A stretch of 63,574 nt of DNA, counting the filler, from Folioceros fuciformis (lineage: Eukaryota), in assembly GCA_049999805.1 (NCBI GenBank). It is 4 parts of 3 records of this genome, joined end to end, with 100 filler letters (N's around TTAATTAATTAA, not from the genome) between each part and the next. Parts side by side here need not be neighbours in the genome. Positions count along the whole stretch, not along the records: positions 27,016 to 41,909 come from JBNGIO010005930.1; 3 more parts are not named here. One strand, 5' to 3'. Shown here piece after piece: positions 26,916-61,647 of this stretch. A program made the translations under genes and the position numbers. A model generated the notes under the pieces. The model was not told the DNA's origin and searched no databases. It saw only the letters and a list, made by a program, of their open reading frames with translations. Each line of letters opens with the position of its first letter. Position 1 is the first letter of the stretch.

Positions 26916-27015
26916 NNNNNNNNNNNNNNNNNNNNNNNNNNNNNNNNNNNNNNNNNNNNTTAATTAATTAANNNNNNNNNNNNNNNNNNNNNNNNNNNNN
27001 NNNNNNNNNNNNNNN
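26916..27015. other. Artificial scaffold linker N44-TTAATTAATTAA-N44
   Basis: Exact 100-bp spacer with a six-frame-stop 12-mer; identical copies at 41910 and 61548. Confidence 0.95.
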
Positions 27016-29461
27016 TGTTACTTCCATGATGGTTAGTGTGCACTGCCTTGCAAGGATTGGTGCAGAATGCTGAGATTGTTTTTTCGTCCGTTCACCATCC
27101 CGTTCACTGTAGCAGCTGAGTTCACCCTTGCATTGCAGGACGGCGAGGGCGTCACAAACATACAGGCATCTGCATATTCAACTATGGTGAATACGAAGTG
27201 CTTCGCTACCTCTTATCAAACTTGAAGTGGTTAGTGGATTTAGTCCGCCTCAATGATCTCTAGTGTGACTGATCTTTCTGAATGCTGTGTTTGAATTTGC
27301 TCTCTCAGGCAGTTCGCATCTAGAGCAAGGTAGCTTGGAAGTCACACGTTTCTCTCTCATGGCAGGTGGGTGGAAGACTATCAAATAGATGGTTTCCACT
27401 TCCATTCGCTGCAGTCCATGTTTTACACCCACAATGGATTTGCAGAGTTCACAAATGGCTTGAATGAGTAAGGCTGCGGTCATTCAGGAAATTGCTCGCA
27501 GGAGCTCCATTTTGGTCGAATTACATAGACTGCTTCCTCGCTCTTTCTCACATTTCTCTGGTTGTGCAGCTACTGCAATCAATACGTGGACAGAGATGCC
27601 TTGCTGTATGTGATTCTGGCTAATGAGATGCTGCACAAGCTCAACTCGAACATCGTCACAATTGCAGGGGATGTATGCACAATCCTGCCTCTCTTCTCTT
27701 AATTCACAAATTTTGGATTGCTTGTGTGCACAGCATCAGCACTCTTGACTGAGTCGATTGCTACTTCCCACAGGCCTCACAGTATCCAGGATTGAGTGAA
27801 CCCATCAGTAAAGGCGGGTTGGGCTTTGACTACTTTGCCAGCGTCTCACCCTCTAAGATGTGGTTGAAAATGTTCCAGACAGTGAATGGAGTATGAGTCA
27901 GGTGAGATTTGAGAGTCCTGTACTGGAATTCTTCGTGAGTGTGGTTCGCGTTTTGTGAACTAACGAACGGCATGTGGTACGGCGATTTCAGATTGTAGAG
28001 ACTTTAATCGATTCCCAGTCCGGAGGCAGAGCTCTTGTGTATGCAGAAAATCATGCCCAGGTAATTTTGCCGACTTAACATCGGAAGATCAGATCGCAAC
28101 TGATTTGTTCCTGGCTTTGGAACTCATTTTTGGCGTTGCTGGCCCCGGTTTGAAGTCATTATCTGAGAAGAGACCCATAGCTGAAGCGCTTCTCAATCCA
28201 GTAACAACAACCTTTGACAGGTCTCTATCGGAAGAGAGAGGAGTGGCGCTGCATAAGGTTGCGAGTCTGTCAGCTGACGTCACTGATTCTATCATTAGCT
28301 GCCGCGATTTATCTCCTGGATTGGCCAATGAGCTGAGCAATGGTATGATCTGAAATTCCGTTTGCAGATGATCAAGTTGATAACGTTTAGCCTTGGTGGA
28401 CCTGCATACTTGAACTTCACCGGGAATGAATTTGGACATCCCGAGGTACGATCTCTTCAAAGCTCAATGCCACAGCCAAAAGGCTGCAGTATTTCTATCC
28501 CTTGACAGATGTGCTGACTTTTGTTTCAGTGGGTCGACTTTCCAAGGTTAAAGAATGAGTTTTCATATCAGCACGCCCGAAGACGGTGGGATCTCTTACT
28601 GGATAGCGGTTCCTTTCATGCCCAGCTTGCGAAATTTGACCAGGTAGGCCTTGTCGAACCAGTCAAGGCTTGGAAAAGTTTTACAAAGGGAGAAGTGCTT
28701 CATGTTGCGTGTACATGAATAACCGGATTTGTTTGAACTGTGACCTCAACGTGAGCAGGCCCTCATGGGAGCAGATGAAAAGGAGAGCATACTCGTTGAC
28801 AAACCACCTAGTTTTTACGTCCTGGATGATCCCACGCAGGTGATGTCTGTGTTTTTTGCTTTCTCCGTTAAAACGAAGTCACACCTAGTATGTCACAAAC
28901 AAAAAATGAAGGGATGACTGTAGGTGATCATATTTCCACGAGGGCAATTGCTCTTTGTCTTCAACTTCCATCCAAGCCCTTCCTACAACAAGCTCACGAT
29001 TGGGGTGCAAGAAACCGGCGAGTACGAGGTAGGTGGAAATCGGCGGCTGTTGTCACAAAGTACTCGCAAGCACATGAACCTCGCTGTCTAAAGAGTGGGT
29101 GGTGCAGAGGGTGCTTGACACCGATATCCTGGAGTTCGGGGGTCGGGGACGTCTGAAAGGAGAGAGCCTGAGAAGCACTTCAAATAGGTGAGCAGCATTT
29201 TTTGTTTTTTTTTCCTCTTTTGTCACGACTTTCCTTGTCCCATAGTACTACTAGAGTGATGTGGACAACCGTGGGTGTGTGAACGCAGGGTGGCGGACGG
29301 TGGTGCCTCCCTCAGACTCTTCCTCCCTGCTAGGAGCGCCGCGCCCAGGCACTGTCTTGATGTTTTGTCGTGGTTGGCAGCAAGTGGGCGGGATGGTGAT
29401 GGTGCGCATAATGGTGGGTGTGTGGCAGGTCTACAAGCTGGCTCGAATTTGGGAGTCATGA
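27016..29461 (+). pseudogene. SBE3: Starch branching enzyme class III (BE1/SBE3-like, GH13), 3' part, disrupted
   Basis: Exons read [72 protein letters not shown] and VYKLARIWES*. There is a frameshift at ~27864 (MW then out-of-frame ENVPDSEWSMSQ), a 5-bp duplication gcgcc at 29336-29345, and TIAED changed to TIAGD. The 5' end is lost at the linker. Confidence 0.82.
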
Positions 29462-29746
29462 ACAGTGCTGGTTCTTGAAATACAATAGTTTCTTCCTGAA
29501 AACACCGGAACTAGAAAGACAGAAGCAGATAAAATGTGTTCGATTGAATTGGTGTCTTTCTCTCACTCCTCCATGTACCCAATTGTACACCTGATAGCCT
29601 TTCTGGTTGTGCGTTCGTCGCATAAGACCTGTTTTCGGCAGTTGAGCTGTCCGTTACCGTTCGATCAATCATCAAGCATAACCGGAAGTTACGTAGTGTA
29701 TGGGTTCCCACAAGTTCTAAGTGCAGGCTGGCCCCCTTTGTTGGAC

Positions 29747-30552
29747 GTATTTTGCATATGCATCATGGTGCTTAACAAGTTCACCCGTATTTTGCATATG
29801 CATCATGGTGCTTAACAAGTTCACCATGTAAGTAGCATTGAAGACAACCCAGCCCTGAGGTTCATATGGGTAGCATTGAAGAAGACAACACAAGTTCTTG
29901 AAGCAATGAAGACAATTGGCGGAGAGAGGTGGTGTTAGCAACTCCAATGCTAAGATTGGTCAGCTAGTGCTAGGACTCTAGCTAAGATTGGTCAGCTAGT
30001 GCTAGGACTCTAGTGGTAGTTAAGACCCTTGCTCGGTGCCAGGACCTAGGACTCGAGTGGTAGTGAAGATTCTAGGACTCAAGTGATATTTTAGCTACTA
30101 CTGGTAGCCAAACATAAGCGAAATCTCATCGTGGTGACAAAAGTTGCTGGTGCAATTTGAAACGCCTAGATGCAAGGTCGAGCCAAGTTCTTCTCGTGGA
30201 AGTATGAGAGTAGATATATGAGATATTATGATTTTACGTCTTGTAGAGCATTGCCTGCAACATAACTTGCTGATTTATTTATTTGAGAGAATAAGATGGG
30301 AAAACAATCTACCCCTACAAAGGAGATAAACCATAATAGGAACACTAGGGGTTAAGCCCCCGAAGCCTAATGACTACCAATAGCATCTAAAATAAAACAT
30401 GACTACTAATAGCACCTAAAGCATCATGGTATGGGAGGAGAAAGGGTCTAAGCACCTNNNNNNNNNNAGCACCTAAAGCATCATGGTATGGGAGGAGAAA
30501 GGGTCTAAGCACCTAAAGCATCATGGTATGGGAGGAGAAAGGGTCTAAGCAT
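29747..30552. repeat. Cluster of short tandem duplications (~40-bp x2, 32-bp x2, ~40-bp x3)
   Basis: gtattttgcatatgcatcatggtgcttaacaagttcacc x2; gctaagattggtcagctagtgctaggactcta x2; agcacctaaagcatcatggtatgggaggagaaagggtcta x3 around a 10-N gap. Confidence 0.85.
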
Positions 30553-31216
30553 AACCAAAAGGTAATATACATTTATATATATTAGTTAAATGATGAATAG
30601 GTGATTTATTATTTAAATTTTGGATTTAGTAGGTCCAGTGTTCATTCACATCTCTACCTCTACATAGGTGCTCTATTCTACCTCCACATTGTATCTTGTA
30701 TTGTATAGAATTCGGCCTCCTTCACTTGCACCATTTTCCTCTTTTAAAGTTGTTGAAGGTGTGTCAACTTGACATCCAATTCTAGTAGAACACAATCCCC
30801 ATCAGCATAGCCTTAGGTATAGGTGAGATGCTCTCCTTCGGAACACAATTGATTGCTTGAACCATACTAGCAGGATACACAACCTTAATGCCAAGCTTCT
30901 CATCTTCTTCCACATGTGCTACTCAAAGCACTAGATGTTCGGGCTAGGCTAATGCTAAATTTGTGTTGCTCCAAGCACTAAACATTCTATCTAAACCAAC
31001 GCTAAATCTATGTTGCTTCACGCACTAAACATTTGAGTCAGGGTATTACTAAATCTGTGTTGCTCTAACCATTAGACATCCAAGCTAGGTGAGTACTAAA
31101 TACATGTGGCTCCAGACATTGGACATTCGAATTAGTCTAGTGCCAAATATATACCCTCCTTCACATCACAATTTTTGCCAGCTGCGTTGTTAGACACTTC
31201 TAGGCACAGGGGTGAT

Positions 31217-31384
31217 AATTCAAATGGAAGTTAAGTTTTCACACAAGTAGGAGAGGAGGTAGACCATGAGTGAAATTGTGTGGTAGGAAGCAACATTGGT
31301 TGGAATTCAAATGGAAGTTAAGTTTTCACACGAGTAGGAGAGGAGGTAGACCATGAGTGAAATTGTGTGGTAGGAAGCAACATT
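31217..31384. repeat. ~87-bp tandem duplication
   Basis: aattcaaatggaagttaagttttcacacRagtaggagaggaggtagaccatgagtgaaattgtgtggtaggaagcaacatt occurs twice. Confidence 0.85.
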
Positions 31385-33820
31385 TATCGCATACCATCAA
31401 AAGAGTGGTAGACTTGAAATGCCTTAACCATTGGCTAAGGAGCCCGCCAAGTGTGTGTGAGCTACCCTCGAGGAAAGGAAGGCTGCTTGGACCAAGAGGC
31501 CTGCAAAAAATATGTGGTTCCATAGGGGGCACCTAACAAACCGTGATAGGTATTAAAGGAATTGGACAAAGTGTACAACACTAACAAAGATCTTAGGTTT
31601 TGAAGGGTCTAAATTTCAAGATGCTCAGAAGCTTTAGGGTCTAAATTTTTATCTTTCCAAGTGTTGCTCAAAAACCTTGTAGCTCCAACCATTTGCAAAG
31701 TTGAAGTCCTAGGAGAAGAGGCTTATGAATAGCAATGTAAAGCAAAAACGAAAATCACAAGTTAACCTAAATAGATACTCTATCTCATGTTTTAGCATGG
31801 ATTTTTCAAGGTTTATCGAGGAGTGTTGTTTCGAAAGCATACCATAAGCATAAGAAAGGGGTTCTCTCTCTTCGCTTTGTAGCCTTTTTTGGAGAATGTG
31901 TAGCCACTAATATGCAAAGGTGTTGTTGGCCAATGAAAAAGCAAGGACAAATGTAGGTATGATAAATGCAGTTTTATAAAACAAGGACAAGTGCGCCACT
32001 ATTCTACAAAGGTGTTGGCCGATGTAGTCTTTTTCAACAAGGACAAGTGTAAGTGTGGTGAATGCTGTTTTTCAAAAAAAGGGACTAGTGCAAGTGCAGG
32101 CGTCACAAATGCAGTTTTATAATTTCAAACAGGGACAAGTGTAGGCCCGGCGAATGCAGTTTTTCAAAACAAATGCAAGTATATATAGGCCCACGGACTT
32201 CAGCAATGGGGTGGTAGGTAGGTAGTTACCAAAAATAATATTTGACGAAGCTAGTCCGTTTTGGCCTCGTCTCTCCTCGTGGCTGTTCCTCCTTTTGGTG
32301 GATGGAATCCCCAACTCCTCTTTAAAATATGGATATAACTTAATCCTTGAGGCCTAGACCTGTCCTCGATTGTTGGACAGGCCAGGCTGCATATCCACAA
32401 CGTGTAGTTTCCGCCGAATGCGGAAAGCAAGTTGGCCGAGACGAGGTCCATTGGACTTGACATAAATTTGTGTGCGTTTATCGTGTTGATTGTACGTGTG
32501 TAGCTGAAGCTATTGGCCGACCGGTTGATCCTCCGGAGGCCTCGCCCACGGCGTCGGGGTAGGAAAACCGCCACGGTTTTAATGGAGGTGGTTGCTAGTG
32601 TGGCCAGCAAGGCGGTCCCAAGGATGGGCATGGCAGGGCATGGCATGGAGTGGAGGGAGGCGGTGTACGGTATCCGGGTAGATGCCATTGGACTGGCCGG
32701 GACGAGGAAAGAGCGTGCCAAGTATCGCCACCCACGCATCCATCCTGCGTGGCACCTGTCTACCGGTGGGATGCTGTCGGGCGAAACCCCCAGGTCCGTC
32801 GCAGCATGGTCGCGGCGTCTTTCAGTCGTCGTCGTGTCAGAAGCCGAGAGGGAAGGAAGCAAGGCGAGGAAGGAAAGGGAAGGGAAGGCAAGGGCTAGAC
32901 AGCGAGCGGCTCGCCTCAGTACATCGACCGCGGAAGGGAAACATCCAAGGAAGGTCAGTAGCAAGTCTAATCAGAGCGAGTATGATGGTGACCCTAATCA
33001 ATTGATCTGGCCCGGCCTCGTCCGGTCCGGGCCGGTCCGGTCTGGCATACCTCATCCATCCATATCGCGTCCCCGATCGCCTTACACGCAGGCAAGCAGT
33101 CAGTCAGGCACCTGCCTGCCTGGCTGGCCTCAGACTGGAAAGAGCGTGAACGTTTGAGACGGTATAAAACATCAGCATTCCACACACTCAGTGAATGATT
33201 CGTTTGGTTCTCCGTCCACATTGCAACCTCATCGCCTCCCCGTTACGTAGCCACAATTCTCTCTTTGTTTGCATGCTTTCTCGGTATCGAGCGATGGTTC
33301 TTTCTTTGCTTGCACGACTTCTTGGTCGGAGTTGTCGTGATTTTGATTCAGTCGACTTGTTTCGATTCATGAGGTGTTGTTTGAAGTCTTTCTTTATGGC
33401 TTGTGGTTTGCATCCTGCTTTCTTGATTTGGTGAGTTCTTGTTCGCATCGAGCACAGTTTGTGTCGGTAGCCGTTGTGGTGTGCGTTCAGACTTCTTGCT
33501 TCCGACGAGAAGGGTTGTTTCCCGGACTCTCTGCTGAGTTCCTATCCTACCCATTCCCATATCTTGTGAAGTTGCAGATTGCTTCTCCCGATTCATACAT
33601 GTCGTTTGGTTGAGGCCTGACATGAATTTTGATGAGCTCTGTTTCCTGGAAAGCGCTTGCTTCGCCTCTCCTCCCGGCATAAGCGACAGCACAGCCTGTC
33701 ACCATTGTTTGAACGCTCTCAGCTGCTTGTCGCGAAGCTTTTGCTTGCTGTGCATAGATCAGATTTTGCACGTCCCACCTGACAAGTGTTTGCAATCGGT
33801 TGTGCAGGCTGTGAGAAGCT

Positions 33821-35319
33821 ATGCTTGTGACGCAGCCCCTGGGGCGCATGAACTCGGCGACTTCGCTGCCGGACTTGAGATCATGCTCGGTGGACGTCTG
33901 GACCACGGGCGATCAGCAACAACCGTCGGAGGCAAGCACGGATCCTACCCAGGAGCTGCTGGAGGCGTGCAAATCCGTCCTGCTGGAGAACGACAAAGGG
34001 GGCTACACTATCCCGGCCAAGGGGCTGTATCCGTATCAATGGAACTGGGACTCGGCCCTGGTGGCCCTGGGCTGGACCTCCATTGACGAGACCCGGGCGT
34101 GGGAGGAGATGGAGAAGCTGCTCTCGGCGCAGTGGGAGGACGGCATGGTGCCGCACATTGTGTTTCACCGTCCCAGCCCGACCTACTTCCCGGGGCCCGA
34201 TATCTGGGGGACCGTGGAACATCCGCGGGCCAGCACTGGGATCACGCAACCTCCCGTTGCCGCCATCTCAGTCCGGAAGCTGGCGGAGACCGCGGTGGAC
34301 ACGGATCAGGCTCTGCGCAGGCTGAGGGTCATCTTCCCCAAGCTGCTCGCCTGGCACAGATGGTTCTACCGTGCGCGGGACCCCGAAGGCACGGGACTGG
34401 TGGCCACGCTCCACCCGTGGGAGAGCGGGATGGACAATAGTCCCGCATGGGACCAGGCTCTGGCGCGGGTTCCCGTGGACTCCATTCCCCCCTACGTCCG
34501 GCAGGACCTGGGCCACGTCGACTCCGCCATGCGGCCTAACAAGGAGGACTACGACCGCTACCTCACGCTCCTGTACAGATTCCGGGATGCAAACTATGAC
34601 TTCACTAGGCTCTACTCCATCTCTCCCTTTCGTGTCACGGATCTCTGCACCAATTGCATCCTGCACCGGGCCAACGCGGATCTGTTGTGGATGGCGAAGC
34701 AGCTAGAGGAGCAGGAGGCGGTGCGGGAAATTGAAACATGGCGTGACAGCACTGCTCGGGCATTCGACTCTCTCTACAACGAAAAGGCGGCCTTCTACTT
34801 CTGCAGGGACCAGCTCACGGGGAGTCTTGTTCCCGCCAGGACGTCGGCTGGTTTCCTCCCGCTCTTCGCCGGCATCGCGTCCCAGGCGCAGGCGGCCGCG
34901 CTAGTGCAGACTTTGCGTGAGTGGCTGGACGCTGTCCAATACGGCGTGCCCAGCCTGGACCCCTTTGACCCCAGCTTCGAGCCGCTCAGATACTGGCGGG
35001 GTCCNNNNNNNNNNNNNNNNNNNNNNNNNNNNNNNNNNNNNNNNNNNNNNNNNNNNNNNNNNNNNNNNNNNNNNNNNNNNNNNNNNNNNNNNNNNNNNNN
35101 NNNNGTCCGGTGTGGGCCATCGTGAACTGGATGATAGCAGATGGTTTGCTCCAATACGGCTACCTGCAGCTCGCACAGCGCATCAAGGATGACACTTACC
35201 GCCTCCTCAGCCAGCACGGCTTGTATGAATACTACAACCCAACCACGGGAGCTGGAGCTGGTGGGAATTACTTCTCGTGGACGGCAGCTATGTGCCTGGC
35301 TTGGCTGGCCAAGCCCTGA
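33821..35319 (+). CDS. GH63 glycoside hydrolase, mannosyl/glucosylglycerate-hydrolase-like
   Basis: Intronless core: YTIPAKGLYPYQWNWDSA, QWEDGMVPHIVFH, STGITQPP, HPWESGMDNSPAWD, YWRGPVW, LYEYYNPTTG, FSWTAA. The flanks of the gap at 35005-35104 overlap (gtcc) and join in frame. The true start is uncertain. Confidence 0.85.
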
Positions 35320-35821
35320 TCATCATCAGCAAGTCCAACCGAAAGGACGTGCGTGCGCAACAAATTCTGTCTGTCTGTCCCATGCCAACCCTCAAATAAG
35401 ACCTTTTGCCTGCGTTGAAGTCGGTCTGACAGCATTCCTTGCCACATCTCTTGTGAATCTCCTCGCTTGTTTCTTCCAAGGCATATGTACATATGTACGT
35501 ATCCTGGTTATCTACCAGGAGGGAGGAGGAGTCATCTGTGTGCTGTACATACGCTATTCATCCGAGAAGTTAGCAACCATTGTACTCAGACATGTACAGT
35601 ATACAACTGGAAAGATGCTGTGAGAGTGGAGAAAAGCCACAGGAACGTGCGTTGGATCGGCTGCTGCGCCGCTCACTATTTGTCACTTCTTTTTGTCAGA
35701 CTTTGCTTTCGTTGTTTTGACAATCATGCACCATTGAGAGATCGTCGGAGAGGAGGAAGAATGTCCCGACCATTTTATGCTGGTGACCTTCGAAGTTGTG
35801 CTGTGTTATACGTGTTTGTTG

Positions 35822-37245
35822 TTATCTCCCTGTCCACCGTGTCATCCCTCCCGCTGATGACGCGGCCGCACGATGAGGGAGTTCCTTTAGGGTGTATGGC
35901 TCAGTTTTCTCTGCGTCAAGGATGCCCAACGCGACGCCCGCCACGTGACAGTTCTGCAGCAAGGCCGTCGTGAGAGAGGACTGATTGTCTACCACTGCCA
36001 GCTTTCCCCTCATTCGCTTGGCGAATCTGCGAAGGAGCCGCTCGTTCTCCACGCTGGCCCGGCTCCTGATACTGCTCTTCTTGGGCATCCTGAGGATCAC
36101 CACATCCACCGTGGCGCCCTGCTGCTTCATGATATTGGACAAGTTGGCCAGTTCCGCTTCGCTGGTGCTGTTGAACGGGGGTCTCAAGGATGTCTCCCCA
36201 TCCGTGATGAGGTGAAGTCGCTTGTTCTTGCCATGGCCTCCAAGAGCCATTTCCCTCACGATCATGTCCATGCCCACCACCAAGGCACTCACATCTGGGG
36301 ACACGGACTCAAGGATGGCCACACTTCGATGGTGTAATGCGTACATGAGTTGCACGGCATGACTTCACCTCATGAGAGACACCACAGACAGCAAAGGATA
36401 CAGTCACTGTCTCCGAAGCCCGGAGTAACCTGATCCAGTGTGTCTGACAGGTCCTGGTTGACAAGGAGGAGTGGACGAGACACTAGCACATTGTTGTATC
36501 CCCCCATCTCCTTGTTCAAAGTGTTGCCAGTCTCTGCAAAGCACCACTGTCACCAGCCACTTTCTTTCAAGCAGAAAACCGGCAGGCTCTGGTACGGCTT
36601 CCCACTTGGAGCACTAGAAGATATACCATGAACAAACATTGTTTTGTCCACACACACGTGACATTCCAGTGGTGCACAGGTGAGAGGGGAGGGGGTTGGA
36701 GGATTTCCTTTTCCTTACCGCTGGCCCCAAACAGCACCAAGCCCAGGTCGTCTGCCTTGTGGAAAAGCATCTGCAGTGGAAGTATAGTATTCTACATGGC
36801 ATGAGAGAAAGTTGGGACGAAACACACCCCACCGTCAAAAAGCGAAAGCTGGGACCGCACACAGCATATCGAGGAGATCCACAGAACATGAGAGAGAGAA
36901 AGAGAGAGATAAGTGAAACGAGTAGCACCTTCATCCGCGCCAGCGAAGATAGAGCCTCGATAACAGTCTGGAGGTAAGGGTGCATTGAGCGGCTGACATC
37001 CAAGAGCACCACCATGGTTTCCTGCGGCCAGCAATGATTTTCCAGCCTATCACTCTCTGGCAGTGGCCGGTGTAGCCGGTGCAGGCAGCCAGAAAAACCT
37101 CATTGCTTGGCGGATCTTCCAACAGCAACGACATGCTGGCATACTCCTTGCGCTTCTCGTGCACCTTCTTGCCCACGCCTTGGAGCAGGCTGCTGGGCTT
37201 GGCAGACTGCCTAGGCCTGGGCGACGCCGCCCGCCCTCCACCCAT
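35822..37245 (-). CDS. Stand-alone Ku80-type vWA-domain protein (truncated Ku80 paralogue)
   Basis: Spliced ORF: ETMVVLLDVSRSMHPYL..LSSLARMK|MLFHKADDLGLVLFGAS|ETGNTLNKEMGGYNNV..GDSD|YVSALVVGMDM..NKRLHLITDGETSLRPP... ending at TAA 35822. Three introns match the Ku80 gene at 53048 in position and phase. The first exon and start are less certain. Confidence 0.8.
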
Positions 37246-38129
37246 GTCGCCCTCCTCGTGTGCCACAATTGAACCCTAAAGGCCTTCATGCTGCAAGCTT
37301 TCAGCAAGCGAGCGGCAAAGTTGCGGGCAAGTGCCCGTGCCCACCAACCATGCCGCATCCCATCTCCCATGTTCCGCACAGTCCGCACCCAACAGCGAGG
37401 TCCATCACCGCTCCATGACAAACAACGCCGTCACGCCTTCGCGCATTCCGACCCTTGCCACAGGGCTGGCAACGCAAACAAAAATTTCTAGTTACAAACC
37501 GGAAACCAAGGACCATCTATTATGCCTCTTTTTTTCATGATAACCACATTATACTCAATTGGTGCCCAAGCTCATCTACAGTTATTATAAATATAAATAT
37601 TTTATCAAGCTTTTTGATATTTTATCAAGCTTGTGTAGAAAGATAGTATGACTAGGACCATTATAATGGATAGTTTGGCATAATACATATAATTACGTAC
37701 GTCCATGTATATATAATTATGTACGTCCATGTCTATAAATATTCTCCCTTGATAAAGAGGATATATTTTCATCCCCTTTGCTCTGGTTGGGCATGGGTTG
37801 GCTTGCGTCTAAATCTCTGAAGCAATAAATTCATCGGACGGTCTGACGTCCTATGTGGCATGGCATGCACCATGTCCTGGTCACTATCTCTCTCTATCAC
37901 CATGTATAGCCCGCTTGCTTACAACCTAGGTTTCACCATAAATATTTAGGTGGCATAACTTTGAGTATAACCCGCTTGGTGGGTTGAACTGTGCGGTGTT
38001 TACAACCATGTGCNNNNNNNNNNNNNNNNNNNNNNNNNNNNNNNNNNNNNNNNNNNNNNNNNNNNNNNNNNNNNNNNNNNNNNNNNNNNNNNNNNNNNNN
38101 NNNNNNNNNNNNNAGTTATGATTCGTAAA

Positions 38130-38625
38130 ATGACTTACTAAACTGAAATAGTAGTGTGTGAAGAGAACTTAACACCAAAGTGATGCTTGTCCTTGTCATG
38201 AACTCATGTGTAGTACCCTACCAATAATGTTCTAAGGACCACTTACACCAAAGGAATGCTTGTCATGAACTCATGTGGAGTACCCTACCAATAATGTTCT
38301 AAGGACCACTTACACCAAAGGGATGCTTGTCATGAACTCATGTGTAGTACCCCACCAATAATGTTCTAAGGATCACTTAACACCAAAGGGATGCTTGTCC
38401 TTGTCATGAACTCATGTGTAGTACTCTATTAATAATGTTCTAAGGACCACTTAACGCTTGCGTCTAAATCTCTGAAGCAATAAATGCTCCATGTCATGGT
38501 CATTGTCTCTCTCTCTATCACCGCGTACAGCCCACTTGCATACAGCCTAGGTTTCCCCATAAATAAATGATGGCATAACTTTGAGTATAACCCGCTGCAC
38601 CATGCAGTGTCTACAACCATGTGCA
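38130..38625. repeat. ~60-66-bp minisatellite (x5) followed by a diverged copy of 37801-38013
   Basis: Unit acaccaaagggatgcttgtc(cttgtc)atgaactcatgtgtagtaccctaccaataatgttctaaggaccactt. The block gcttgcgtctaaatctctgaagcaataaat...tacaaccatgtgc occurs at 37801 and at 38456. Confidence 0.85.
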
Positions 38626-38849
38626 AGTTACAAACTGAGTTAAAAACCGTGTGCGGGATCATCCCCTACAAACATGAACAAAGCAAAGCAGGAAGCTCTT
38701 GAACCTCTTACCCTAACACAAACACAAGCAAAGAGCGGTGAAGGAGCTTGCACACCATGGAGTGTCCATTGTTCATTCAACCGCCGACACTTGGGCAATT
38801 CAGTGCAAATGATCTAAGCTGGCAGGTGGTAAAGGACATGAAGGTTGCT

Positions 38850-39770
38850 TGGTGTTCAATGAGGATGTGATGGTGTTCAGCTAATGTAGTGTTAAGGCAA
38901 GCTCATTTTGTGTTCAGCCAGGGTGATGTAGTGTTTAGGCAGGCAGATCTTGTGTTCAGCTAGGTTGTTTTTGTGTCAAGGCAAGCTGATTTTGTGTTTA
39001 GCAAGGGTGATGTAGTGTTTAGACAAGTTGATGTAGTGTTCAGCTAAGCTAATTTGGTGTTCAAGCAAGCTGACTTGGTGTTCAGGCAAGCTGATTTGGT
39101 GTTTAGTCAGGATGTGATAAGTGCTCACCAGCCTCGCTTCTTTTAATTTTGTATTGTGTGTAACATGATAAGGTGTCATGAGCAGGTGTCAAGATGTTTC
39201 CCCCCACCAGCATCAGATTCTGTTTAAGAAACACCTCCCAAATCTTCAGTGCACACACTAACCACAACAACTCCCTTCCCCCCTCCCTAAGCACGCTTCT
39301 ACCAATTTGAACAGTCCTCAATCTAGCCACAACACCCCCAAACCACAGTGTGAGCACGTAATGCTGATTCTGAAATCCAAGTCCTAAATCCAAACCACTA
39401 TGTGAGCGTGTGGTTCCCCCAGCACCCCCAAAAGCACGGTGTGTGGGTGCACTGCCCACAGTAGCCCTTCCAAACAACCCTGCGAGTGTGCCTGACCTGA
39501 TCCTAAATTCCAAGTCTTAAATCCAAACCACTATGGGAGCGTGTGCTTCCCGCAACACCCCCCAAAGCACGGCGTGTGGGTGTGCTGCCCACAGCAGCCC
39601 TCCCAAACAACACTGTGAGTGTGCACTCATGCACACTCTGTTGATGTAAATTCCAAGTCCTAAATCCGAACAACTGTGTGAGCATAGGCTTCCCGCAACA
39701 CCTCCAAACCACTATGCAAGGGCGCGATGCCCACAGCAACCCTCCCAAACCAACTCGTGAGTGCGTGGGC
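38850..39770. repeat. ~21-bp degenerate array (to ~39110) and ~140-bp unit x3 (39370-39770)
   Basis: Units of gtgttcaggcaagctgatttg; aaattccaagtcctaaatccaaaccactatg...ctgcccacagcagcccttccaaacaac occurs three times. Confidence 0.8.
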
Positions 39771-40356
39771 TGCTGATCGTCACATCCAGGAGGATGCAAA
39801 TCATGAAATCCAGCTAAAGCATCCTCGTCGTTGTTGGAGGCGCTGGCCGGCTTGTGTGTGAAGCGCGTTATGCTGTTAAAATGTTGGTCGGGCTGTATGT
39901 TAACCGCGCTTTGGTGTTCAAATTGAAGTGGAAGGCAGGGCGGCATTTAAGAATATATGGACAATGCGGGCGGTGCTGGACAGCGCAGGCAATGGTGGAG
40001 AACGCACACGGTGCTGGAGGTGGAAGGCCCAGTGTTTTGCCTATGGCAAAATACAAGAGATATTTGAGAGATACGGTGAGGGATATACGGGGTGCGAAGG
40101 CAGGAGTTGCGCATGCTTAAGATGATGGACCATCTTCGAAGCATTTATTGCTTTGGAGATTGAGAAGCTTCACATGGGTTGGGGCCATGGGCAAAGACTT
40201 TTCAAAGTAGGTTTGCTCTTGTGGGNNNNNNNNNNCTCTTGTGGGGCATGGATTGGGGCCATGGGCAAAGACTTTTCAAAGTGAATTAGGGCTGTAAAAG
40301 TCCTAGCAGTAGGATTGTGCTTCTATTGCATCTAGTCTAGCGTAATCTAGATGCTA

Positions 40357-41383
40357 TGTTCACAAAGATATTTTTTGTTTTTAATTTGTCTAAAGGTATA
40401 TACAAAATGTGTCTTAAATAGTGTCTGTGGGTGTCTCATCCGAAGGGGTCCACGCATTTGTGATTACTAGATATTATTAATTACAGTCTACGGTGACTAG
40501 CTAGTCGATGGGGTTACGGGCAGATTATCCGTTCCGTAACACTCTCTCTTAAGCTGGACGTAACTGAACAGTAATGGAAGCTATCTCTCATGGAGTGCGA
40601 TGCTCCTCTTTGGTGCGCTCCCTTTGAAGGCTAATGAAAGCCTGTACAGGCCATCTTGAGGCACGACACTGAAGAGGCACAAGTCAGGACTTGTGGTCCT
40701 AAAAAAGTAGCATGACCACCTTGAAGCAAGCATCTCAAGATCGCCTTGCTTCAGCACCTGAGTCATGGAGACCAGGTTCTTGCCCATCTGTGGGACGAGG
40801 AGCACAGGCTCTAAGGTAAGCACCGAACTGCCCTCGACGGGAAATTTGCAAATGCCTTGTTCTATGATTGAAAGGCTGGATCTACTATGATCGTCATCGA
40901 GTAACACCCTTTCCTTGAGAGGACGAGTATCCACCTTAGTGAATAGAGTACGATCGTTGCATATGTGGGCGGTGGCTCCACTGTCTAGATACCACCCCTC
41001 ATCCTGATGCAACTCGGTGTTGAGGCAAACCGTAAGTATTTTTATGGTTTTTCTCTCCGCTGCGTTGGCGCTCCCTTTAATGGCAATACTGGCTGCCTGT
41101 CACAAGTCAGCCTTTTGCAGCTCTCTGGCCTCTTTCTTGCGGCACTATCGTGCCCAATGGCCGGCAGCTCCGCAGCAATTACAGTTTCTAGCTCGGCGAG
41201 GAGGGGCAGAGGGTGAGTCACCTTTAGGGGTGAAGTTCGCCTTGCCCTTCAAATTCCTCCTTGGCTTGAAATAAGTGGAGAGCGCCCTGTCTGCATGGGG
41301 CTTGGACCCTCCTGCAGAGCTAAGGTGGCTCTGCTCCTGCTGATACAGAGCACCGATAATGTCCTCCATTGTAAGGGTGGAGG
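40357..41383 (-). mobile_element. Internally deleted Ty1/copia element (gag end, zinc knuckle, protease, PPT, 3' LTR)
   Basis: CNCCGAAGHWAR knuckle (frameshifted), WYLDSGATAHICND protease and DGLYRL, followed shortly by a purine tract (aagagagag) and a 185-bp TGTT...AACA LTR at 40357-40541. No integrase or RT. Confidence 0.8.
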
Positions 41384-41909
41384 TGTGGGGTTAAAATATA
41401 GTACCCGGGGGTACCGCGAGGTCCACACAAGCCCTCTATGTCGTTGTAGCTCTGGGATTCGATCCCAAGGGAATGATTTGTGTTAAACTACACAGGTTAA
41501 CTTCTAAAGTCAGCCAACACCTAAAACTCGACTGACCCACACACACGCGTCCAGTGCTCGGACCTTACCAAGCCCCCTTACTTCTTCCTCCAGGCGACTC
41601 CCCTACCACTCGGTCGCTCCAGGGACTACCTCCCCCTGGACTACTCTTGGTTGCCCACTGGGCTACTCTCCGTTCCCCAGTGGACTACTACCGTTGTCTT
41701 TCGGGCTACCACTCGTGGGTCCTCTCTCTCTCTCTCTCTCTCTCTCTAGAAATTTCTCTCTCCGAGTCGTCCCTTTCCGACCGTTTTTTCCGTGCATTCC
41801 CTTTGCGCTTCCCTTCCTTGGTTCTCCACAAAGCCGCCCCTCACTCCTGAGGATCAAACGCACGCACACATGAACAGCAACAATCTGCCAGTCGCCTTCC
41901 ACCCGAGGG
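41384..41909. mobile_element. Probable LTR of a second element nested in the copia gag
   Basis: Gag similarity to the 61648-63164 element (STLTMEDII..L.QQE) stops abruptly at a TGTGGGG start. The following sequence is non-coding with a (CT)n tract and is cut by the linker. Confidence 0.5.
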
Positions 41910-42009
41910 NNNNNNNNNNNNNNNNNNNNNNNNNNNNNNNNNNNNNNNNNNNNTTAATTAATTAANNNNNNNNNNNNNNNNNNNNNNNNNNNNNNNNNNN
42001 NNNNNNNNN
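41910..42009. other. Artificial scaffold linker
   Basis: N44-TTAATTAATTAA-N44. Confidence 0.95.
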
Positions 42010-42939
42010 CCATACAGAGCAGCTTGCGGATCTTTGCAACATCTGCAGGTTTCAACGAAACCTGATATTAGTAAGTCAGTATCCTACGTCTGCCAACACT
42101 TTCAAGCATATGGTGAAGCTCACTGGACCGCAGTCAAGCGGATACTTCGCTACTTGAAAGGAACCCTAGAATTTGCGCTTGTGTATCGGGGCACAGGACC
42201 AGAATCAGTGCTTCCGATGGAAATCACGGCCTTCTCCGACAGCGACTGGGCCGGAGATCTTGAGAAGAGAAGGTCCACTGCAGCTTATGTATTCATGGCA
42301 GCACAAGCGGCCATTTCATGGCGAAGCAAAAAGATGCCAACGATTTGCCTATCGTCAGCCGAGGCTGAGTATGCCTCTTGTACAGAAACTGCAAAGGAAA
42401 TTACCTGCCAGCGAGGTTTCGCGGAGGGGCTGGAGATGCCATACACTAAGCCGACCAAGCTTTACTCAGATTCTCAGTAAGCGATAGCCTTGATGCAGAA
42501 TCCAGTCTTTCATAGCCACACCAAGCATGTTGAACTCAGAATTCACTTCATTCGGCAGCTCGTTGAGCGCGGCGTGGTGCAGCTACACTATGTTTCGATT
42601 GACGAAAACCAAGCAGATTTGTTGACCAAGCCCTTGTCTCAGCAGAAGCACGAGAAGCATCGCAAGGCGTTGGGGCTACAAGCAGCGTGCGCGACGAGCG
42701 AGAGGTAAGCTCGGACTGGTGCACAGCTGGAGCTATTCGAGTAAGTCGAATAACTCGAAGATTCGAAGCACAAGCTAGATTCTAAATTAAACTAGATAGC
42801 TAACAGCAGAAATAGAGGGAGTGTGAAAGCAGTTGATGCTTTATGTATTTCTTAGCTGTTAGAAATGTGAAACAATTTATTTAGCGAGTTAGTTATCCAA
42901 CGGCCAACCGCCTTCCTGTGTAATTCATTCATTCTATCA
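42010..42939 (+). mobile_element. Ty1/copia RT end, RNase H, PPT and short 3' LTR; degenerate
   Basis: YRAACGSLQHL..TKPDI, AVKRILRYLKGT, FSDSDWAGD, SSAEAEY, in-frame TAA at 42478, HSHTKHVELRIHF, NQADLLTKPL. PPT agaaatagagggag, then TGTGA at 42822. Confidence 0.88.
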
Positions 42940-52310: not shown

Positions 52311-52746
52311 TTAAGCCCCAGGGGACTTGATATGGTATAGCTTGCCGAATACATGCAGTGCCGTAACAAAGCCGATGAAGCAGAGGCTCATGACAAGCAC
52401 CACTGTCGGGGTGATCTTCAATCCAGGGGCGTCGTCCGTGTAAAAGCGTAACATATTGCTCCCGCCACCTCCAAAACCGCCACCTCCGCCTGATGAAACT
52501 CTCCGCCTGCGCAACCCCGCTGCGGCAGCACTACCCCTGACAGCGGCTCCCGNNNNNNNNNNNNNNNNNNNNNNNNNNNNNNNNNNNNNNNNNNNNNNNN
52601 NNNNNNNNNNNNNNNNNNNNNNNNNNNNNNNNNNNNNNNNNNNNNNNNNNNNCTCCCGAAGGAGGAGCCCGCACTCCTGCTCCAGCTGCCCCCGATCCAC
52701 CCCGAGAAGCCGAGGTGGCAGCTTGGCTCTGCGATCCTTTTGCCAT
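52311..52746 (-). CDS. SEC61B: Sec61 translocon beta subunit
   Basis: MAKGSQSQ...LRRRR...[41 protein letters not shown]. The flanks of the gap at 52553-52652 overlap (ctcccg), so the gap is probably spurious. Confidence 0.95.
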
Positions 52747-53047: not shown

Positions 53048-56000
53048 ATGGTGATCGGGGAGAGCCTGATTGTAATGCTGGACGTCGGTCCCTCCATGCA
53101 ACCTCATGTTGAAGTGATACACAAGTCCCTTTCTTCGCTTGCGCTGCGAAAGGTGAGAAATCCACCTCGGGTTTCTCTTCTGCCTGTGTTGCCGGTAATT
53201 CTGGGCATTTCGGCGAGCTGAGCTGAGCTGAGCCGACCGCTTGATTCCTGTTTTCTGCAGATGGTTGGCCACAAAAATGATGCCATTGGGCTTGTGTGTT
53301 TCGGGACCAGGAGTAAGCCGAAGCTTCAGGCTTGGTTTTCCGTCAGCAAGCAATTTAGGCTTGAGGCTTTGGTTGAGGGGGCCTGTTTGCTTTGTCATCG
53401 CAGAGACGAGGAATGCTCTGAGTACAGAGGTTGGTGGTTACGCGAACATCGAAGTTGCTCGCGAAATTCAGGTGTTGAATACTGACGTTGCCTACACCCT
53501 CGACCAATTGCCGTGGGGAGGTGCCGCTGCGGACTGTATCCGTTTCTTCCATGGGTTGTACTTAAGTGCAGTGCAGGTTTTCCATCTTCCGCTGTTTCTG
53601 TCAAAGCTCCTTGACATCAGGTCAGTTTTGGATGCCGTGGTGGTGGGCTTGGATATGTTCAGAAAGCAAGTTGAGACCACTAGAAATGGCCACAAACGGC
53701 TTTTTCTCATTACAGACGCTGAATCATCTCTGAGGGAGCCCTATCAATTGACACTTCAAGAGCAAGTCGATTTGATTGGTGATAAGTTGGTTGAGAATAA
53801 GGTCAAGTTTGATGTTCTCAAGGTTTCCAAGAATGATGACCCGATTTCCAAAACTACGCGCCAGCAAAACGAGCATTTTTTGAGAACTTTTGTTACGAGG
53901 ACTGAAGGAGAGATGGAGGAAGTTTTCAACCATGCTGCAATAATGGCAGCTATAAAGCCCCGGCTTTCTCCAACGACCTTGTACAGAGGGGATTTTGAGC
54001 TGACACCGGAAATGAAACTTAAGGTGAGACTCGGTGGAAGGGTGTGTTGATGCTTTGCATCACTGGTCGTTTCTTGGTTGAGAAGCACTATCATCTCTCA
54101 TGGTTTGGCAGGTGTGGGTCTACAAGAAAGTCTCCCAAGAGAGAATACCGACGCTGAAGAAATTCTCAGACAAGGCACCAGCTGATGATCCATATGCAAC
54201 CCGCGAGGTCAAAATGGACGTTGAGTACAAAAGCACTCTGGATCCTAGCATTACATTTCCTCCCGAGCAGAGAGTGAAGGCCTACAAGTACGGTGCAAAT
54301 AATATCCCTCTTGATCCAAAAGTGGTGGATGCAGTTAAGCTGGTCACAGAAAAGGGCTTGAAGCTTCTTGGATTTGTTACGTCTGAAGAGGTTCCAAGGT
54401 GAATCCACAGTCCCATGTGTCCTGCTGCATGTTGTTCTATCGTTCAATCTCGCCACTTCGGTGTTGTAGACTGTCAGCCGACAATCTTGTAAGACTTCCA
54501 GGACTCTCCCGGATGCAGACACTACTACATGAAAGATACGAAATTGTTCATTCCAGAACCAGGGAATGTCAAATCCAGCATGGCAATGTCTGCCCTGGTG
54601 AGGGCAATGAAGAGTACAGGAATGGTTGGAATTGCTCGATGTATTTGGAGAAAAGGACAAGCAAATGTTATCATTGGAGTCCTCACACCTAATCCTGCAA
54701 CTGATGACACCATGGTGAGTGCTTAGATGAAGAATTGATGAGTTTTCATCTCCAAGGCTGGGAGGAAGTGAAACAGTTTTGTGCTGGAGCATAGACTTTC
54801 TCGTTTGTTGAGGTTTGACTTTAGCGAAGATGGTCTGTCGCTGGACAGTTTTGCTACATATTGAAAACATGTGTGGGATTTTGACAGGAAGACACATTCT
54901 ACTTCAATGAGGTTCCGTTTGCAGAAGACATAAGAGAGTTCCCGTTCAACTCTTTTAGCAACCGTCCAGCATCCCAACGACCTTCGGCCTCTCAGGAGGC
55001 TGCAGCAGAAAATCTCGTAAAAATGCTCGATTTAAGTCCTTCTCCTGGGGAAGAGGCCTTGCAACCTGAGAAAACTTGTAATCCAATCTTAATGGTGAGC
55101 GCTCTCGTTCACTCAGTGAAATGTGTGCTAGTTGTGTCTTTCCTGTTGATTGTGAGATAACAGCGTGCAGTGAGTGGGCATGTCTTGCCGTGAGTAATCT
55201 GTGCTTGGGTGTGCAGCGGTTTTACAATTTTTTGCATGCAAGGTTGCTAGATTCTGAAGCTGCAGTTCCAGCTGTACCTGAACTCCTGAGAAAGACAATG
55301 GAGCTGGACCATACTTTAGAATCTCAGGCTCATTTGGCATTAAAGCAGTTCTCCAGTGAATTCACTTTAAGGGCCAAAGTCCAGGTGCAACTCGTTTCTG
55401 CGGCTTGGCTGATTCTGAATAAAAAACACACTGTATTATTTCAGAATGCAAGGGTGTTTTATTTTGAAGTCTTTGCAATGAGCGTTTCTCTGCAAGCTGA
55501 ACTGACTTGTACGGGAATGTAGTATTCTATGTCATTGTTGATGGTTCATTTGTAGCAAGGCTGACATCATGCATCGCTGGTTGTCTGTTTGGCAGAGGGC
55601 TAACGCTGAACCCAAGTTTTGGAAGGAAGGACTTGCTGATGCCCCAAGAAATGACAGAGCTTTGCCGGACGGTGCCATGGCAGGGGAGGGGAGCAACCAA
55701 AGCGAGATCACATTTGAGAGTCTTGCAGTGAAAAAGGTTGACGAAGTTGGCATCGCTCATCCAGTTGACGATTTTGAGACGCTTCTGGCAAGAAGAGATG
55801 GAGACCAGTTTGTTCCGATTGCCATCCGCGGAATGAAGAAGGTCATAGCTGATATGTTGGACTCTGCGTACAAGGGGAACACTTACGAGAAGGCTCTCTC
55901 ATGTCTGATAGCGCTCAGATCAGGGTGCTTGAAAGAGGAAGTATGTGATGTAGTAGATGAGGAAAAAACATACTGTGTGTGCGGGTGGTGGACGTACCGC

Positions 56001-56411
56001 TTTCCAAACCGCTCATTGACTCTTGTCTCTTCTGTACGCAGGAACCAGCAGAGTTCAACGAGTTTCTGCGACAGCTGGTCATCAAATGCCGGGGAAGGCG
56101 GCTGAGTGATTTTTGGGACAAAGTTGCGTCCCAAAGTATAACTCTAATTAACTCAGAAGAAGTCTACACAAGGTAACTGGGGTTCTTGAACTGCCTCGCA
56201 CCAACGTCATCGATGTAAATTTTGGAATGCGCCAAGGTAACATACGTGTGTCTCTGACGGTGCCTTCGGAGTTCATTGCAGTAACGTATCTACAAATGAG
56301 GCAAAAGCCTTCTTGGCAGGACCAGAGCCAGGGAAAGACGTTCTGTCCAGGGACGACGGGCCTGACGAGGAGATGGATGAAATGGACGCCCTTCTAGACG
56401 AGGCCATGTGA
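53048..56411 (+). CDS. KU80: Ku80 (XRCC5), full-length, multi-exon
   Basis: vWA (LDVGPSM, GGYANI, KRLFLITDA), core (VWVYKK, KAYKYG, LKLLGF, PFAEDIREFPF) and C-terminal helical domain (YEKALSCLIALRSGC, EPAEFNEFL). It ends DEEMDEMDALLDEAM*. Confidence 0.93.
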
Positions 56412-56621: not shown

Positions 56622-57454
56622 TCAGTTCTTCAACTCCCGAATGCCTAGTTTCTTGACCAGGTTCAGGTAGTCTGCATCGTCCTCGCTACGCAAATACATC
56701 AGCAATTTCTTGCGCCTGGCAATCATGGCCTTGAGCCCCTTGCGGGAAGCAAAATCCTGTGCGGCAAATTGGTTCCTCAGAGCCCAAGACATATGCCCAG
56801 CAGCAATTGCAGCAGCTGAATCAGATCTAGTAAAGCTGCCATACCTTTTTGTGAACCACCAGATGGTCCGATAGATATTTGATCTTTGCAGTGAGCAGAG
56901 CAACTGCTCCGGCAAAGCAACAACACAACGTGAGCAAACATACTAAACGGACTAGCACACACAAAAATGTCGAGAGCCAAGCACACACAGGACCTTGCAC
57001 TTGCACCGAGCCGGAATCGCCTTCGTGGACTTTGAAGGCGTCAGCCACCTTCTGCAGATCCAGCTTGTGTCGCTCACCAGCACGGAGCATTTTCTCCGAC
57101 GATTGATACTCCTGAAAGACGCAAGCGCGCTAAGCAGGCAAGCAAACACGCAGTTCAGGTCCGCCACGCAAACAGGATTCGCAGGGTGCGTACTAGGCCT
57201 GGAAATTGCAGCGGCGCAGTGACCGCCGATACGCGGAGAGGAGCCCATGCCGTGCCGCTCCGTTGCTGCGGAAGCTGCAGAGAGTTCAGAGCCGACATCC
57301 GCCGTCAGCGACCTGTCACGGAAACAGCACCTCGGCGACCCTGGAGCTCACTCACCTTGTGTGCCTGAAGGCCGCTGCCGTTGTTGCTGTTGTTGATGCT
57401 GCATTGCTGGAAGGCGATGCCAGCCATGGACTGAAGACCTACCAGGGCCGCCAT
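56622..57454 (-). CDS. rps15: Nuclear-encoded ribosomal protein uS15 with plastid-like transit peptide
   Basis: Five exons: MAALVGLQSMAGIAF...|LPQQRSGTAWAPLRVSA...|...FKVHEGDSGSVQVQ|VALLTAKIKYLSDHLVVHKK|DFASRKGLKAMIARRKKLLMYLRSED..YLNLVKKLGIRELKN*. This is a bacterial-type S15 signature. Confidence 0.88.
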
Positions 57455-61547: not shown

Positions 61548-61647
61548 NNNNNNNNNNNNNNNNNNNNNNNNNNNNNNNNNNNNNNNNNNNNTTAATTAAT
61601 TAANNNNNNNNNNNNNNNNNNNNNNNNNNNNNNNNNNNNNNNNNNNN
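61548..61647. other. Artificial scaffold linker
   Basis: N44-TTAATTAATTAA-N44. Confidence 0.95.

Follow-up and report, generated by a model that had tools for sequence, protein, structure and literature searches.

The vWA domain of Ku80 serves accessory factors of DNA repair and of telomeres as a landing pad. In Folioceros fuciformis (assembly GCA_049999805.1), a minus-strand gene that is collinear with this domain only raises the question of whether a plant can encode the landing pad on its own, or whether such a gene is a decaying copy or part of an ordinary second Ku80. We analyzed it within a window of 63,574 nucleotides (nt) made of four joined parts with 100 filler letters between them; all positions and distances are window coordinates. 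The part at 27,016–41,909, which comes from record JBNGIO010005930.1, holds the gene, hereafter the paralogue, and adjacent parts are not necessarily neighbours in the genome. An earlier sequence-only reading had proposed an intact, strongly diverged Ku80 derivative that is old, selected and unable to bind DNA. We find that the paralogue is a genuine protein-coding gene that is transcribed and spliced. It is likely that its product is a selected stand-alone vWA protein. As an overall explanation we favour, by a narrower measure of confidence, an old duplicate of the 5′ part of KU80 that encodes a free docking module.

The supported coding sequence (CDS) of the paralogue runs from 37015 to 35822 on the minus strand in four exons (37015–36929, 36770–36719, 36533–36402 and 36294–35822, joined by script), encodes 247 amino acids and ends with the stop codon TAA at 35824–35822. 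All introns are of the GT..AG type. Neither disabling lesions nor splice-site loss, which would mark a pseudogene, was found: the 247 codons contain zero stops or frameshifts, as the sequence-only reading had stated for this strongly diverged frame, and 0 of 20000 shuffled versions of the CDS lacked an in-frame stop. The first supported coding exon, numbered exon 2 (36929–37015), provides 29 codons from the ATG at 37015 (context GAAACCATGG), including the motif DVSRS at 37000–36986. Coding exons 3 (36719–36770) and 4 (36402–36533, with TLNKEMGGY at 36522–36496) measure 52 and 132 nt, lengths identical to those of the corresponding exons of Ku80. Exon 5 (35822–36294), the last, carries the second half of the vWA domain with LITDG at 36211–36197, then a decayed version of the barrel-entry stretch of Ku80 (35944–35885) and finally, before the stop codon, a tail of 20 codons without counterpart in Ku80 (35884–35825), which is the novel tail noted previously.

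The window also contains a full-length Ku80 gene (53048–56411, plus strand), likely the parent or a sister copy, which lies head-to-head with the paralogue and 16 kb away in the window. Its first four exons, A–D, occupy 53048–53152 (beginning with the ATG at 53048), 53261–53312, 53404–53535 and 53626–54023; the exons at 54112–54396 and 54520–54714 encode the Pfam Ku barrel and that at 55614–55940 encodes Ku_PK_bind. BLASTP of the paralogue against the N-terminal exons gave 75 identities in 203 positions (37%; 63% positives, 4 gap positions, E 2e-43), and this result, together with phmmer on exon 5, shows homology with the alpha/beta (vWA, Pfam Ku_N) domain at the N terminus of Ku80. When the Ku80 locus was masked, per-exon tblastn over the window recovered exons A–D at the paralogue with E values of 5e-6, 0.005, 4e-7 and 1e-12, and the homology ends with the end of exon D, at ...YTLK (35885) in the paralogue. 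The collinearity with the vWA domain alone was thus upheld, as was the claim of three common introns, whose positions and phases (0, 1, 1) match. Intron 2 (36771–36928, 158 nt, phase 0) corresponds to the Ku80 intron at 53153–53260, intron 3 (36534–36718, 185 nt, phase 1) to that at 53313–53403, and intron 4 (36295–36401, 107 nt, phase 1) to that at 53536–53625, with the donor GACT/GTATCC in both genes. The motifs T-x-N-x-L...GGY and (F/Y)xxAxVVGxDM are kept in the paralogue and in Ku80s. Searches of single paralogue exons against Pfam yielded nothing beyond two weak sub-threshold matches, both in exon 2 (VWA_CoxE, E 0.005; VWA_2, E 0.023); Ku_N matched none of these exons, nor did it match exon D of the genuine Ku80. 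Despite the 16-kb spacing in the window, the two genes differ in GC content at third codon positions (GC3; 0.72 in the paralogue CDS and 0.53 in Ku80 exons A–D), and their codon usage is strongly different.

Is the paralogue expressed, and are its introns removed? We used X1, a public sequencing run of the same organism, and X2, a run from another organism, a relative that is about 88–90% identical. X1 contains 78% of the words sampled from 35700–37400 and covers 35105–38013 with five contig pieces, each at least 99% identical. Its joints skip exactly 36534–36718 and 36771–36928, whose plus-strand ends are CT..AC, and because of intron-skipping joints we judged both runs to be RNA-derived, although the record of X1 does not declare it. 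Intron 2 is spliced in one contig of X1, which joins 36929 to 36770, and in one of X2; exon 3 is present in both (X1 record 5 and X2 record 10). Intron 3 occurs in X1 in spliced (record 4) and unspliced (record 3) form and is retained in the X2 contig, and X1 record 2 covers exactly exon 4. Intron 4 is spliced in X2 record 8, in a joint from 36292 to 36402 with two letters between, and contigs of X1 end at 36294 and 36402. For exon 5, X1 record 1 is unbroken from 36294 to 35105 and beyond, and X2 record 8 spans 35812–36292. From the joints of both runs and the X1 ends at 36294/36402, we conclude that all three homologous introns are used, in two organisms, so the junction check that had been suggested came out in favour of these three introns. 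Of two other runs, X19 gave no match to the paralogue region, and X18 gave only a GA repeat and 30 letters.

The RNA contigs also bear on the 5′ end, which the sequence-only reading had placed at ATG 37245. That start requires an extra intron of 77 nt at 37098–37022. The transcribed leader (37016–37457, minus strand), which includes both the proposed 5′ exon (37245–37099) and this putative intron, is unspliced: X1 record 5 is unbroken over 36929–37457 and X2 record 10 over 36929–37413, the latter followed by 46 loose letters. While introns 2 and 4 appear in the contigs in spliced form only, 37098–37022 is unspliced in 2/2 contigs, from two species, and the 5′ exon thus gained no RNA support. 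The donor of the putative intron would be GTTTTT, whereas all six other donors of both genes have a purine at +3. On the other side, the 49 codons of the 5′ exon are coding-like, with GC by codon position of 0.59/0.51/0.80 resembling that of the true exons, whereas the leader farther upstream lacks such a pattern. We consider ATG 37015 the probable coding start. Because of the GC3 of 0.80 in the 5′ exon, the spliced 298-amino-acid form starting at ATG 37245 is kept as a minority reading, possible yet the weaker of the two.

Could later exons of an ordinary second Ku80 be hidden by the N runs at 35005–35104 and 38014–38113, or be reached by alternative splicing? The paralogue does lie on a 2.9-kb stretch bounded by these two 100-N runs, but this explanation is largely refuted and we regard it as highly improbable. 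X1 record 1 (2978 nt) starts at 36294, passes the stop codon, reaches 35105 and continues for 1788 nt more with zero joints. The downstream N run is crossed by an RNA contig. The same N run splits an intronless, convergent neighbour on the plus strand, an MGH1-like glycoside hydrolase gene (33815–35319; Pfam PF22422, E 1.1e-93 and 1.6e-15), with profile positions 1–294 on one side and 295–356 on the other; since the profile continues from 294 to 295 across the run, the run hides almost nothing. This neighbour occupies the 3′ side of the paralogue and leaves no room for further Ku exons. In tblastn over the 63.6-kb window, Ku80 exons E–K gave nothing below E 0.1 outside the Ku80 locus. Moreover, the paralogue has lost its counterpart of the exon D donor (AAG GAA instead of AAG/GT) and the barrel-entry motif has decayed. 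The continuous contig and the blank tblastn result together mean that the window holds no hidden Ku core exons and that the contigs show no onward splicing, the outcome that would have made the gene an ordinary Ku80.

It follows that the Ku beta-barrel (PF02735) is absent from the paralogue, given that the frame stops at 35822, no onward joint exists and the barrel-entry motif has decayed, and that the C-terminal arm and Ku_PK_bind (PF03730, PF08785) are likewise absent, given that exons H–K are unmatched outside the Ku80 locus. With the barrel-entry motif lost, the paralogue would be unable to form the DNA ring, and the proposed incompetence for DNA binding, in the sense of missing ring-forming parts, holds. 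We also observed that the RNA contigs of the paralogue and of the MGH1-like gene (mannosylglycerate hydrolase type) merge in the 2978-nt contig, so the 3′ ends of the two genes overlap or abut.

We next asked what the paralogue is related to. A HMMER search of 1.84 billion representatives with exon 5 (156 amino acids) at E<=1e-3 returned 17 matches, the best at 43% identity, and all 17 resemble Ku80 or exon pieces of it, in agreement with the proposed derivation from Ku80. Pfam was applied to 10 of the 17: P0002, P0003, P0008, P0009 and P0010 carry Ku families, and the other five are short, exon-sized pieces. Named matches comprise KU80 of Chara braunii, Cryptomeria japonica, Iris pallida, Actinidia rufa and Linum perenne and a Colocasia hypothetical protein; the named relatives are streptophytes. 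The barrel-entry motif P-x-T-x-Y/F-R-G-x-x-E is present in 15 of the 17, while P0017 stops within the motif and P0005 deviates from it. Judging from Pfam families, names and this motif, none of the matches is an orthologue of the paralogue; they are ordinary Ku80s. Homologous-protein searches with exon 5 in two modes found nothing, and neither did a word-based search with Ku80 exon D; a metagenome contig scan with exon 5 produced 216 pattern matches and 0 relatives; and phmmer with exon 5 against PDB gave chance-level TetR matches only (E 0.79 and above). In the Atlas, vWA-type neighbours stood at 0.85–0.86, which serves as a lead only.

The degree of divergence supports the view that the paralogue is old. 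It is 31–39% identical to seven Ku80 vWA domains, including 36% to that of its own genome, and the genuine Ku80 is 34–39% identical to the same set. Among 77 columns defined as conserved by agreement in at least five of six outside Ku80s, the paralogue keeps 49 and the genuine Ku80 51, and the losses of the paralogue cluster in the barrel-entry stretch. Such a distribution is consistent with lasting constraint on the fold and surface of the vWA domain and with an old loss of the remainder, as had been claimed. A tree of 17 vWA rows put the paralogue near the base, on a branch of 1.41, without resolving its placement; forcing it together with the Ku80 of the window (branch 1.07) cost 6.3 log-likelihood units, with a p value of 0.075 in the approximately unbiased test (p-AU), so the tree neither establishes this pairing nor refutes it. 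The genuine Ku80 vWA domain (53048–54023) is itself fast-evolving, with its branch of 1.07 set against a median of 0.52 and 34–39% identity to other streptophyte Ku80s.

Substitution patterns had been put forward as a further check. Between the paralogue and Ku80, synonymous divergence (dS) is saturated (proportion of synonymous differences, pS, 0.73; nonsynonymous divergence, dN, 0.61). Against X2, six of nine listed differences in exon 4 are synonymous and three are conservative (S>T, V>I, L>V), with a ratio of nonsynonymous to synonymous proportions (pN/pS) of 0.16 and a binomial P(>=6/9 synonymous) of 0.009. In addition, GC3 is 0.72 across the CDS and 0.40–0.56 in introns 2–4 read in an arbitrary frame. 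The expectation of an orthologue in relatives was borne out in X2, at about 11% divergence, and not beyond it.

These comparisons must be weighed against another explanation, in which the paralogue is a transcribed, truncated KU80 duplicate that was formerly constrained, perhaps at a stage when it was full-length, but today drifts or acts as RNA only, its useful protein lost. Several observations speak for it and weigh against a selected protein. Should transcription begin near 37457, the point at which both contigs end, 12 upstream ATGs precede ATG 37015 and one of them opens a frame of 104 codons that overlaps it; translation would therefore be hampered, which is awkward for either start. 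The 20-codon tail past the lost donor does not show the coding-like GC pattern (GC3 0.50), and the X2 contig, like some contigs of X1, retains intron 3. At 88.8% identity to X2 (481 nt with 54 differences and 3 gap letters), exon 5 is barely better conserved than the alignable part of intron 4 (133 nt with 15 differences and 5 gap letters). The count of synonymous and nonsynonymous changes covers one exon and its nine listed differences, and 102 further differences lie outside it. No orthologue was found among the 1.84 billion representatives, a library that lacks the window's own exon and thus says little on close relatives, and the only orthologue comes from one relative. To our knowledge, no APLF-type partners or ligands of the Ku80 vWA domain are known in plants.

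Against drift stand a frame that stays open across 247 codons despite 63% amino-acid divergence and conserved columns kept nearly as often as in the genuine Ku80. Splice sites still function at all three homologous introns in two organisms, the listed exon 4 differences show a synonymous excess, and GC3 in the CDS exceeds that of the introns. We therefore consider a drifting or RNA-only duplicate unlikely, and retain the selected stand-alone vWA protein as the preferred reading.

What might such a protein do? The sequence-only reading had drawn attention to a motif resembling a MIDAS (metal-ion-dependent adhesion site), and the residues it named are present: the paralogue has DVSRS (residues 6–10) and LITDG where Ku80 has DVGPS and LITDA. 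What did not stand is their distinctiveness. DxSxS after the first strand is found in the paralogue but also in an ordinary Ku80, that of Cryptomeria (P0003), as DISPS, and LITDG recurs in P0010 and P0001; since each half occurs separately in ordinary Ku80s, the MIDAS argument is weak. Only the combination of both sets the paralogue apart among the aligned sequences, a small set. Of the further MIDAS residues, the Asp of LITDG is present in the paralogue; by motif comparison, the position of the third-loop threonine may fall on an Asp that is conserved in the GD(F/Y) motif of Ku80s (GDSDY in the paralogue), which would speak against a metal site. A vWA domain that regained a working MIDAS, with metal-dependent ligand binding as in integrin I domains and INTS14, would be new to the Ku family, and we rate this as quite improbable. 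A precedent in its favour is that INTS14, which has a Ku-like fold, binds INTS10 through D8/S10/S12 (PMC7347597).

The peptide-docking pocket offers a firmer clue. Residue numbers were taken from human Ku80 (chain 6zha_C) as aligned with P0003 by HMMER and transferred through a multiple vWA alignment. On this basis human L68, Y74 and I112 correspond to L, Y and V of the paralogue, within TLNKEMGGY and ALVVGMDM, so that the pocket for Ku-binding-motif (KBM) peptides is predicted to be kept; Y74 and I112 are residues that we take to belong to the pocket. In human cells, L68R impairs the recruitment of KBM peptides (PMC4831024). PDB contains Ku80 chains of 231 amino acids that match the vWA part only (6tyt and others), which fits a domain that folds alone.

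Because these pocket residues are kept, the paralogue is most likely a free docking module. We propose that the paralogue arose when exons A–D, the 5′ part of KU80, were duplicated long ago, and that its product would consist of one Ku80-type vWA (alpha/beta) domain with a short degenerate tail, 247 amino acids in all. Without the barrel and arm, it would form no DNA ring and would presumably not pair with Ku70 in the usual way. It would probably still offer the docking surface, and as a free module could compete with Ku for vWA-binding partners or bridge them elsewhere, thereby modulating end joining or telomere functions without performing them. Such a competitor or adaptor mechanism is put forward tentatively, with less confidence than the selected protein itself. 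More speculative still, and rather unlikely as it stands, is the broader notion that hornwort-type plants carry a conserved free Ku80 docking domain that titrates or redirects Ku partners, perhaps via a re-formed metal site, and so sets the balance between end joining and homologous recombination.

If this broader notion is true, the paralogue would be the first known Ku-derived regulator of Ku. A selected gene that encodes only the vWA landing pad would amount to an inbuilt competitor or adaptor for Ku partners, a natural experiment on the roles of the vWA domain apart from DNA binding, and a handle on how plants tune end joining versus homologous recombination, which also limits gene targeting. 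Should it prove untranslated, or limited to a handful of related species, it is no more than a partial duplicate in good preservation. We found no description of a natural vWA-only Ku80 gene in the literature, although papers on hornwort genomes may already include a model of it in their supplementary gene lists.

The surroundings of the two genes were recorded as well. The Ku80 gene is flanked on one side by a Sec61-beta gene (52314–52550, minus strand; PF03911, E 9e-19), the upstream part of which is cut by an N run, and on the other by a ribosomal protein S15-type exon (56625–56942, minus strand; PF00312, E 2e-10). Between the paralogue and Ku80 in the window, at about 40580–42480, both strands contain open frames broken by N runs with motifs like those of Ty1/copia-type retrotransposons (gag zinc knuckle, protease/integrase-like, and an RT/RNase H end). 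N occurs in 13 runs in the window. Five are 100 letters long and two are 10, and the other six form three pairs of 44+44 with 12 bases between. The paired runs, at 26916–27015, 41910–42009 and 61548–61647, look like masking and are unlike ordinary scaffold gaps.

Compared with canonical plant Ku80, the paralogue shares the homologous vWA domain, three intron positions and the conserved motifs. The canonical protein has about 700 amino acids with a beta-barrel, a C-terminal arm and Ku_PK_bind, whereas the 247-residue paralogue lacks all three and has lost the barrel-entry motif. The 274-amino-acid 'Ku80 family protein' P0009 of Actinidia rufa ends just past the exon boundary at which the paralogue departs from Ku80 (KIK, then read-through) and is otherwise a typical angiosperm Ku80; it is probably a truncated model. 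Retention of the intron at this boundary in ordinary KU80 genes would likewise give a vWA-only product. Hornworts, unlike flowering plants, are reported to retain DNA-PKcs (PMC10419180), and the end-joining machinery of such lineages would therefore be fuller than that of flowering plants.

Beyond plants, isolated vWA constructs of vertebrate Ku80 that bind the KBMs of APLF, WRN and MRI consist of the same domain alone, and the paralogue conserves the human pocket position L68 together with adjacent residues; those constructs are laboratory fragments of vertebrate Ku80, whereas the paralogue is a natural gene. INTS14, which like INTS13 has a Ku-like fold, uses a DxSxS near the N terminus as a protein-docking MIDAS (PMC7347597), and the paralogue likewise has DxSxS; INTS14, however, retains the barrel and C-terminal domains and is 7–10% identical to Ku, whereas the paralogue is a clear Ku80 derivative without a barrel. 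In Paramecium tetraurelia, the specialisation of Ku80a/b/c maps to the N-terminal alpha/beta (vWA) domain in chimeras of residues 1–240 (PMC7161955). There, as here, KU80 was duplicated, but the Paramecium paralogues are full-length and still Ku subunits, whereas the Folioceros paralogue consists of the vWA domain only.

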